Below are positions 30,301-33,300 of a stretch of 64,000 bases of DNA, piece by piece. Each line of letters opens with the position of its first letter. The first letter of the stretch is position 1. Made by a program: the position numbers. The stretch comes from Phycisphaeraceae bacterium. Lineage in GTDB: Bacteria > Planctomycetota > Phycisphaerae > Phycisphaerales > Phycisphaeraceae. The DNA lies in NCBI GenBank assembly GCA_963674705.1, contig OY771506.1, positions 3,520,001 through 3,584,000 on the forward strand, read 5' to 3'.

Positions 30301-33300
30301 TGATCCGACGCTTGACACCAAGGGGATCGAGGATGATCCCGGCTTGCATCTACCAAGTATGTGTGGGATCTGGCCCGGCGCCGAGTGGACCGAGCGCGAG
30401 GTGTTCGACATGTTCGGCATCCGCTTTGATGAACACCCGGACCTGCGCCGCATCCTTCTCTGGGAAAGCTATCCCGCTCATCCGCTACGTAAGGATTATC
30501 CGGTCAAGGGCCGACAGGAGCGCGAAGAATACGTGGTGATCGACCGCGATAGCGCGTAGTTTAGAGTAGTTGAGAAGTAGAACAGGAGATCAGTAGATTC
30601 TTTCACCTGTTCACCTGCTCACCTATCTTCATCCCGCACTCCGGGCATTCGGTTCTTCCCGCTGCGACCGTGCCGCGCAGGTCGTAGCCGCAGTTTTCAC
30701 ATGAGGGTAATAGCCTCGTGCGACGGTATTTTTCGCGCCAGTAGAGCAGGATGATCCCCGGGCCGAACGCCCATAGTAATACCGTGCCTGCAAGTACGAG
30801 CGTCGTATAGGTTCCGCGGCAGCAGTAGCATTCACGCTGTCTCGCTGCCCAGATATGGACGGGCACAGCAATGAACAGCTCCAGGATACTGCCAACGATC
30901 AGGGCACGGATCATCTTCCCGAGTTGCGTGTAGCGGTCACCTTGTCGCCAGTAGATGAAAAAGATGACCGCCCAGAAAATCCAGATGATGAGCATGCCCG
31001 CCCAGATGTAGAAGACGCCTTTGCCATCATGTGCTTCCATAACCGGTTGCCAGAGGTTGGGTAGCTCCATCAGCAGGGCGATCCCTCCGGTCGACAGCAG
31101 CATCGCCATGATGGCCGCGGTGATAATGGCCGTTTTCAGAGGTCGGCCTTCTTGTGTCAGTCGAACGGTGAAACCTTTGCCCGGACGAAGGAACGCCCAT
31201 TGTGCCAGCATGAGCAAGCCCATGAACAGAACCACATTCACGGCGTATTGCCAATCTTCCAGTTCCCATAGGGCCCCGGGGGTCAGGGGCGTCCCCATCA
31301 GGCCGGCAAAGATCGATTCGTGACCAAATGGAGAAGCGCCGAACACATGCTCGCCCCAGTAAGGCGAGGTGATCCAGCCCAATCCCAGGATCACATAGAG
31401 CAGCCCGGCTATCAGGATCAGCCGACGCATGCGGTATGCTTTGTGTTGGCAGTGCGTCATCGGCCTCTCCGCGGTAGTGGGGGGCGAGTTGCTATTAAGA
31501 AGACGGATTGCCCCTCGTTAAGAATCGGATAAATCAGGATTCCCGGTTGACAATACCCCATTCTGTGCGATACTTTGGGGTTATGAACGAGCGGTACTTC
31601 TTTTTTGGCTACTTTTGGTTTGACCGGACGCACGCCGCGTTGGGCAAGATGTAGTCAACCGCCTGGACTTGACGAATCACCACCCCGACGCGGAAGCGTT
31701 GGGGTTTTTTAATTGGGTACGAGGCAAGCCGATGATGTGGTATTGGCGCAATATGAACTTTACACGGGCAGGGGCGTACGATGCGCCCCTCGCCCGACAG
31801 GAACACAAAGGAGCGTAGCGATGATTGTTGTCATGAGGCCGGATGCGACGGAACAGGAGGTGGACCACGTGGTCCAGCTGGTTAACGAAATGGGACTGAC
31901 CGATCACGTGATCCACGGTACGGACCTGACCGTCGTGGCGGTGATCGGCGACGACCGCAAGAAAGACGGCTCCGTTCTCGAACGTGCGGCGGGTGTCGAC
32001 CGCGTGATGAAGGTACTCGCTCCGTACAAGATGGCGGCACGCGAGACGCGCGTCGGCGAAAAGACCAAGGTTGACATCGGAGCCGGTTGCGTTTTCGGTG
32101 GTAAACACATTCCCGTGATCGCAGGGCCATGCAGCGTCGAAGATGAAGAAAAGATTCTGGTCGCGGCCCGTGCGGTGAAAGCGGCTGGGGCGCATGCACT
32201 TCGTGGCGGGGCGTTCAAACCCAGGACCAATCCCTACGCTTTCCAGGGCCACGGCGAAGACGGCCTGAAGATGCTCGCCGCCGCCCGTGCGGAGACAGGC
32301 TTGCCGATCGTCACCGAAGTGTTAACACCTAATGATGTGGATCTGGTCTCCGAATACGCCGACTGCCTACAGATCGGTACACGTAACGCCCAGAACTACA
32401 AGCTGCTGGAAGCCTGTGGTAAGCAGCCTAAACCTGTTCTATACAAGCGTGGCATGGCAATGACGCTTGATGAATGGCTTCAGGCAGCCGAGTACATCCT
32501 TGCTGAAGGCAATCCCAACGTCATCCTCTGTGAACGTGGCATCCGCACCTTCGAGGACCACACCCGTAACACGTTGAGCCTGTCGGTTGTGCCTGAACTG
32601 CACTTCCGCACGCACCTGCCGATCGTGATCGACCCGTCTCACGGCACGGGGCACGCCCGGTTGGTTCCCGCGATGGCGCGTGCTGCCGTTGCTGCGGATT
32701 GTGATGGTCTTGCGATCGAAATGCACCAAGATCCTGAGCACGCATTAACTGATGGCGCTCAATCGATCACACCTGAGGTGTTGACGGAGTTGATGGCCAG
32801 CCTGCAGCGCGTGGCTGCAGCGGTTGACCGTGAATGCACCCCGGCAACGTCACGTGCTGCCGAGGCCGCAGCGCGATAGTATGGAGGCATGAGTAACAAC
32901 ATTATCCGTCTTGGGGCCGGCGATTTTGACGAGGCCATGGACTTCCTGAACATGGTCTTCAGTGAACATTCACCGCATGACTTTGCCAGGATGCTTTCGA
33001 GCATCTATCAGCCGACGAACGAGCTGATGCGGTGCAACTATGCTGTACGCGACGGCGACAGGCTCGGGGCTGTCGTGGGCGTGTTTCCGATCAACTGGCG
33101 TGTCGGCGATGTTACGCTACGCGTCGCTGGTGTTGGGGGTGTTTCGGTCCATCCGCAAAGCCGTGGCAAAGGTTACATGAAACTCCTGATGGATCACGCC
33201 GTGCAAGAGATGCGTCGGGAGGGGTACGACTTGTCGTACCTCGGCGGCCGACGTCAGCGCTATGCTTACTTCGGCTACGAGGTGGCTGGCACAGCGGTGC

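Follow-up and report, generated by a model that had tools for sequence, protein, structure and literature searches.

A predicted leader-peptide attenuator rich in Phe, Tyr and Trp codons before the DAHP synthase gene of a Phycisphaeraceae bacterium

The leader locus upstream of the DAHP synthase gene

The window analyzed here, 64,000 nt of contig OY771506.1 from a Phycisphaeraceae bacterium, encodes a type I-beta DAHP synthase of 352 aa (aroF; 31821-32879, plus strand; coordinates are those of the window unless the contig is named). The gene scores above the NCBIfam cut-offs for 3-deoxy-7-phosphoheptulonate synthase (NF006421, TIGR01361), and residues 1-335 of the product, a span that covers the N-terminal regulatory domain, align with PDB 1rzm. 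The enzyme tree places this protein among named Planctomycetota records. No other DAHP synthase was found in this genome, which is 96.6% complete: PF01474 has no match, and the second PF00793 match represents KDO8P synthase. A Shine-Dalgarno-like AAGGAG can be read in the sequence ahead of the gene (31808-31813, plus strand). A GNAT/Eis-like acetyltransferase, assigned from weak matches below cut-off, is encoded 9 nt downstream on the same strand (32889-34043) and is probably co-transcribed with DAHP synthase. Homologues of the acetyltransferase are present at 11 of the 27 loci compared, 10 of these 11 from the genus, own genome included, so that this is a genus-level neighbor only.

Upstream of the gene, all on the plus strand, lies a compact array of regulatory features. 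A sigma70-type promoter (31547-31574) with 10 of 12 consensus matches consists of a -35 box TTGACA (31547-31552), a 16-nt spacer with TG and a -10 box GATACT (31569-31574); no second consensus promoter was found in 30800-32200. The ATG of a leader ORF of 23 codons plus TAG (31583-31654) is located 8 nt past the -10 box, which leaves no room for a Shine-Dalgarno sequence, and the leader is therefore predicted to be leaderless. The longer starts at 31547 (TTG) and 31565 (GTG) were ruled out, both being inside the promoter. The product, MNERYFFFGYFWFDRTHAALGKM, contains five Phe, two Tyr and one Trp, and these eight aromatic codons fill all but one of the nine positions 5-13 (Y5-F6-F7-F8-G9-Y10-F11-W12-F13; 31595-31621), a regulatory block delineated from the leader reading frame and a frame test. 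Segment 2 of the putative antiterminator, CCGCGTTGGG (31635-31644), is within the leader ORF, 13 nt 3' of the last Phe codon. The intrinsic terminator (31682-31710) comprises a 10-bp stem (31682-31705) with a 4-nt loop and a T run that ends at 31710; its hairpin folds with a z-score of -4.27, and none of 200 shuffles is equally good. Segment 3 (31684-31693) is an arm shared by the two structures, pairing either with segment 2 or with 31696-31705. From the terminator to the start of the DAHP synthase gene there are 110 nt. The aromatic leader and terminator that an earlier note had reported at this locus are thus real, and its remark that no Rfam leader is listed here holds as well, with no match above gathering score in 20 loci.

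Several other observations pertain to this region. Five Rfam matches below gathering score in 31400-31900 were judged to be chance hits. A GC-rich hairpin (31767-31797), with sub-threshold Rfam matches only, lies between the terminator and the Shine-Dalgarno-like sequence of the DAHP synthase gene. One RNA run (0.07 word share) yielded a single 230-nt contig at depth 3 over 31628-31857, which crosses the terminator; it reveals neither the strand nor the ends or level of a transcript, could stem from DNA, and was set aside as evidence. Genome-wide, 234 long ORFs, counted without a shuffle control, have an ATG 5-11 nt past a consensus promoter, hinting that leaderless mRNAs are common in this genome.

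Conservation, specificity and reach of the aromatic leader

A DAHP synthase gene was found in 27 of 41 genomes, the own one included, and at 24 of these 27 loci (23 of 26 if the own genome is not counted) it is preceded by a promoter, an aromatic leader and a terminator; the element is missing at L016, L019 and L026. At L019, a tRNA-like sequence, not a leader, is seen by eye just upstream of the gene. A sigma70-like -10 box precedes the leader start by 6-10 nt in all 24 leaders, a count that attests the existence of such a start rather than its use, given that the starts were chosen partly by the promoter. Over 23 leaders, aromatic codons are distributed over frames 0/+1/+2 as 160/36/50 and Tyr plus Trp codons as 57/0/22, with the synonymous TTT/TTC and TAC/TAT mixed. 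The aromatic density is 5-8 codons per 10, and all three of Phe, Tyr and Trp are encoded by 22 of the 24 leaders; Trp is mostly represented by one codon per leader and is absent from L013 and L021. The distance between terminator and gene shrinks to 24-25 nt in L013, L021 and L022.

Covariation was scored on an alignment of 23 leaders, from which L002 was omitted as a duplicate of L001. Although the scores are inflated by the kinship of the sequences, it is strong for the terminator and moderate for the antiterminator. In the terminator, 96.1% of the alignment cells are paired and 7 of the 10 pairs show two-sided change, which none of 500 shuffles attains on any of the five measures. Pairing in the antiterminator amounts to 88.5%, compared with 37-47% when slid, and six cells show two-sided change (0 of 500 shuffles). 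Its pair counts are unremarkable (two-sided-change pairs, 34 of 500 shuffles; further pair types, 248 of 500), two central pairs are often mismatched in the 23-leader alignment, and in 14 of the 24 leaders the duplex is better than its shuffled counterparts (p<=0.05).

The genome contains 371 terminators with a same-strand ORF behind them, and at 19 of these places a promoter-adjacent short ORF is also found in front; the 19 include the leaders of aroF, thrS, ileS, leuA and a methyltransferase gene, as well as a new Ile leader before the gene for citramalate synthase (cimA). When all 346 promoter-adjacent short ORFs of the genome are ordered by amino-acid enrichment, rank 1 goes to the thrS leader, rank 2 to the aroF leader, rank 4 to the cimA leader and rank 5 to the ileS leader. 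A Phe-rich ORF at contig position 5342124 was rejected as a leader, with no cognate gene behind it. In a uniform test with no promoter filter, in which counts include the own genome, an F/Y/W leader with a terminator was detected at 24 of 27 aroF loci vs 0 of 126 loci of thrS, cimA, leuA, ileS and ilvB. The Leu background in this test amounts to 3 of 27 aroF loci and 2 of 27 cimA loci, and cognate leaders occur almost exclusively on cognate genes.

The earlier note was confined to Phycisphaerales; we traced the leader to Planctomycetia, Geobacterales and Terriglobia as well as to a single Verrucomicrobiales record. Across Planctomycetota, matches were obtained in 74 of 121 genomes; of the 28 new best loci examined, 26 could be assessed, and 14 of these pass the uniform test. 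A contig scan gave 12 passing stretches among the best 80 of at least 601: eight named Planctomycetota and one each from Geobacter, Clostridia, Terriglobia and Verrucomicrobiales. In Geobacterales, the order of Geomonas propionica, the leader is present at 30 of 30 loci, always with Phe, Tyr and Trp, followed by a terminator 35-85 nt on at 24 loci and accompanied by an adjacent consensus promoter at 16. The Terriglobia leaders, found by filter at 14 of 25 loci (12 with a terminator), include one, L347, that resembles the end of the upstream gene. In 19 of 28 distant leaders picked by hand, the antiterminator duplex outperforms shuffles at p<=0.05. None of the seven cyanobacterial loci in the enzyme tree pass the leader test. 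Phe/Tyr-rich short ORFs without Trp precede DAHP synthase in a Brachyspira record (L290), with a strong adjacent promoter and no terminator, and in a Gracilibacteria record (L272).

The enzyme tree includes 155 rows; 33 near-redundant rows from the genus and Geobacterales were left out and 2 loci were skipped, and the label 'internal', which over-calls in GC-rich DNA, was set aside. Mapping the leader on this tree requires 20 label changes, and the leader-bearing groups join only at support 64, so that the topology appears compatible with one origin of the leader as well as with several.

The predicted switch and competing explanations

Segment 2 forms a 10-bp helix with the terminator 5' arm, and an RNA that ends before the terminator 3' arm folds into this 2:3 helix. 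The terminator is the more stable helix (-19.9 vs -16.6 kcal/mol for the antiterminator); therefore, read-through requires that the antiterminator forms first, and the switch would have to be kinetic. We modeled the effect of ribosome position on 23 leaders by equilibrium folding of truncated RNA, with an assumed ribosome footprint of 12 nt (9 and 15 nt were also tried for the window). As long as the A site has not moved beyond the last aromatic codon, the antiterminator captures 9.3-9.4 nt of segment 3; the mean drops to 5.6 nt two codons further on, 1.9 nt at four codons and 1.5 nt at the stop. Thus, capture is lost right after the last aromatic codon, and the switch point falls where the codon block ends. 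The ribosome-free nascent RNA still forms the antiterminator in the model (9.9 nt here, 8.1 nt on average over the 23 leaders), so no protector helix is predicted. In E. coli trpL-type leaders, such a 1:2 helix causes termination when the leader is not translated. Without a protector, the gene should also be turned on by failed initiation or by a general slowing of translation ahead of codon 14.

The proposed sequence of events is as follows. Transcription would start at about 31581-31583 and yield a leaderless mRNA from which the leader would be translated. As long as aromatic aminoacyl-tRNA is plentiful, the ribosome would pass codon 13 and cover 31635-31644, allowing the terminator to form. 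Under shortage, a pause at codons 5-13 would let 31635-31644 pair with 31684-31693 before the terminator 3' arm is made, and transcription would continue, so that a shortage of any one of the three charged aromatic tRNAs would probably result in more DAHP synthase. The locus contains the product-codon leader, terminator, mutually exclusive antiterminator, upstream promoter and means of initiation that characterize classical ribosome-mediated attenuators, and, in the model, a stalled ribosome frees the antiterminator segment that a passing one masks. By contrast, it lacks the 1:2 protector helix of the four-segment E. coli trpL type and matches neither the Rfam amino-acid leader families nor the T-box above gathering score. 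It also fits attenuator logic, because the genome has a single DAHP synthase, no T-box (RF00230) and no identifiable Trp repressor TrpR.

Taken together, these features make it highly probable, judging from sequence, that the aroF leader is a ribosome-coupled transcription attenuator. The classical attenuation proposed in the earlier note is thereby supported: the parts that can be tested by sequence are present, conserved and placed as the model needs. The further proposal, that one leader serves all three aromatic amino acids, holds for the codon content, with Phe, Tyr and Trp encoded in 22 of 24 leaders; we infer that each of the three is sensed, and consider it likely that all of them act.

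The principal alternative retains the attenuator and limits sensing to Phe, or to Phe and Tyr, with lone Trp or Tyr codons adding little. Phe indeed accounts for 103 of the 160 aromatic codons, two leaders have no Trp, and the C. glutamicum aroR leader, as described in PMC11802643, gives no Tyr response. However, 22 of 24 near leaders and all 30 Geobacterales leaders have kept Trp and Tyr, these residues are placed distally in the block, at positions from which a stalled ribosome still leaves segment 2 free in the model, and some phylum-level leaders are dominated by Tyr (L163, with two Phe, eight Tyr and one Trp); we regard restricted sensing as rather unlikely. It is far less probable that the nascent peptide arrests the ribosome via a free metabolite or tunnel contacts, with aminoacyl-tRNA shortage not being the signal. 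The model for such arrest is TnaC, and the local motifs kept within groups, GYFWF among near relatives and WYGFYF in many Geobacterales, would be compatible with it; but the order of aromatic residues varies freely between families, the geometry is common to the Thr, Ile and Leu leaders, and the polarity is wrong for a biosynthetic gene, as a product-induced stall would turn the gene on.

Two explanations that dispense with the regulatory role of leader translation seem even less plausible than peptide arrest. The U-rich stretch could be an RNA element, that is, a protein site, a slippage tract or part of a riboswitch, and the ORF a by-product of U-richness, given that Phe codons are U-rich and 75 of the 160 aromatic codons are TTT. 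This scenario, to which we assign a very small probability, is at odds with the strong frame bias, including that of Tyr plus Trp codons, with the synonymous changes, and with the conservation of leader start and stop; moreover, no Rfam family was detected in the 20 loci, and none above gathering score at E<=10 in the window stretch. The least credible option is a stand-alone small gene with a constitutive terminator, DAHP synthase having its own promoter. The strength of the terminator and its 110-nt distance from the gene would suit this arrangement, whereas the lack of a second consensus promoter in 30800-32200, the conserved antiterminator and the terminator-to-gene gaps as short as 24-25 nt do not.

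Other amino-acid leaders, known systems and implications

The leaders that the earlier note placed before thrS (contig 704291, minus strand), ileS (1451174, minus) and leuA (2716422) lie where it put them and precede genes that pass the respective cut-offs. In the uniform test, a Thr leader with a terminator is present at 16 of 28 thrS loci, an Ile leader with a terminator at 10 of 28 ileS loci and a Leu leader with a terminator at 20 of 24 leuA loci, which fills two gaps of that note, the conservation of the leuA leader and the terminators of the thrS leaders. The antiterminator and the leaderless start are additions to it, as are the leaders of cimA, ilvB and trpS and the precedents before DAHP synthase discussed below (aroR; uORFC-13-1). 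The Ile-rich, leaderless cimA leader MNEAAAIIIEIIKTSPR (contig 3853219, minus strand; L031) is followed by an antiterminator and a terminator before the citramalate synthase gene (TIGR00977), and such a leader with a terminator is found at 22 of 27 loci (relatives L064-L090). In the model, the antiterminator pairing of the thrS, cimA, leuA and ileS leaders drops after the last cognate codon, as in aroF. The cimA, ileS and leuA leaders (L031, L029, L030) follow a common design, in which the antiterminator segment holds the TAG stop within G-G-(A)-TAG-GG and pairs with CCCTG of the terminator arm. The cimA and ileS peptides are alike as well, which suggests duplicated cassettes.

Two further leaders have no intrinsic terminator. 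A leaderless leader with a Val run at its end precedes the acetolactate synthase gene ilvB (contig 385388, plus strand; L116; relatives L193-L212) without a U-tract terminator; it was identified at 16 of 20 loci by filter and at 19 by eye. At its stop lies an element that hardly varies, TGAGCGG-N4-CCCGC, for which there is an alternative pairing, GGTC:GACC; the tail is rich in C and poor in G. This leader is a candidate Rho-dependent attenuator. Such attenuation has been proposed for terminator-less leaders in Actinobacteria in the text of PMC1262725. Rho is present in the genome (main rho gene at contig 4329723-4330964). A second Rho-like gene (contig 14571-15737, minus strand) scores below the TIGR00767 cut-off. 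The trpS gene is preceded by a leaderless Trp leader ending in WRWRCCA (contig 3988516, minus strand; L117), which was found at 4 of 14 loci; in several members of the genus, trpS directly follows the upstream gene.

The leader before a SAM methyltransferase gene (contig 3480338, plus strand; L294-L299), with 25 codons, a leaderless start and a terminator, is present at six of six loci, all from one genus, in line with the conservation that the earlier note reported. It has no run of a single residue and ends in conserved N-R-[FYN] and A-[RG]-Y..AR motifs; it could be an arrest peptide or a sensor of translation stress. A promoter-adjacent short ORF with three Val codons (contig 1465382-1465385, plus strand; L118) lies before valS and is a candidate leader, for which no terminator was found. 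In the own genome, no cognate leader was found before trpE, pheS, pheA, tyrA, trpA/B/D, aroA, aroC, leuS, metG, cysS, argG, lysC, metH, serA, ilvC, ilvD and others; these genes were placed by sequence motifs, with only trpE confirmed by HMM, and the his genes and tyrS were not located, so that leaders may have been missed.

Leader-peptide attenuation was documented mainly in Proteobacteria and Actinobacteria as of 2010, according to PMC2965389. The closest parallel is C. glutamicum, where, in the accounts given by PMC11802643 and PMC4046766, the aroR leader (Phe-Tyr-Phe) precedes aroF and responds to Phe, not Tyr; there, too, an aromatic-codon leader stands before a DAHP synthase gene, and ribosome stalling raises transcription. 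We liken it to the present leader as an analogue only: aroR lacks Trp and responds to Phe only, whereas here Trp is present in 22 of 24 leaders, there are 5-8 aromatic codons per 10, and the enzyme is of type I-beta. Similarly analogous is the Acholeplasma uORFC-13-1 of PMC8632094, a predicted Phe-coding U-run uORF with a ribosome-binding site and an intrinsic terminator before aroF, the gene for 3-deoxy-7-phosphoheptulonate synthase. As presented there, it is known from Acholeplasma and environmental sequences only, unlike the present leader, which combines Phe, Tyr and Trp, is predicted to be leaderless, has a defined antiterminator and occurs in other phyla. Putative attenuators before aroA-I-beta operons, for example, in Thermus thermophilus, were predicted by Merino (PMC1173090, Table 7); these likewise stand ahead of type I-beta DAHP synthase, but that source gives for them no sensing mechanism, no leader peptide and none of the taxa found here.

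The E. coli trpL, pheL and pheST leaders, as outlined in PMC11802643, share with the present one a cognate codon run and a competing antiterminator and terminator, but each responds to one aromatic amino acid and controls branch genes, whereas here a single leader, without a predicted protector, is placed at the common entry step. In S. lividans, RNA-seq data in PMC8079986 show leaderless starts for leuL, trpL, ilvL and thrL. Leaders precede thrS, leuA, ilvB and trpS in that species, too, and some of them lack a U-tract terminator, which is also true of the present ilvB and trpS leaders. None of the eight leaders in that paper, which come from a different phylum, is an aromatic-trio leader on DAHP synthase. 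Planctomycetes go unmentioned in the main texts of PMC11109978, PMC8632094 and PMC2965389, and appear only in connection with leader-gene spacing in PMC4833913 and only in an anti-SD table in PMC10783764. In the mainly open literature, whose supplements could list such leaders, we found no description of a Phe/Tyr/Trp leader, nor any account of leader attenuation for Planctomycetota or for Geobacter. As a mechanism, such attenuation is textbook material; it is the predicted leaderless, protector-free form reading three amino acids that we did not find described.

Multivalent leaders are known from the ilv and thr operons. The Thermotoga DAHP synthase binds Tyr and Phe through its own domain. 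We tentatively suggest, as a possibility rather than a firm conclusion, that the leader represents a widespread, uncatalogued class of three-way Phe/Tyr/Trp attenuators on type I-beta DAHP synthase in Planctomycetota, Geobacterales, Acidobacteriota and others, which would supply the Trp feedback missing from the enzyme's own Tyr/Phe domain, and that this lineage may run its amino-acid control largely by leaderless, protector-free cassettes (aroF, thrS, ileS, leuA and cimA, together with the terminator-less ilvB and trpS) instead of T-boxes and TrpR. Because every Geobacterales locus checked has the leader, a cultured group amenable to genetics is available for tests of three-way sensing. Rfam and genome annotation could take up the unannotated leaders as ready entries. 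The findings extend leader-peptide attenuation to Planctomycetota and further phyla, and show how a cell with one DAHP synthase and neither TrpR nor T-boxes could weigh all three aromatic products at the entrance of the pathway.
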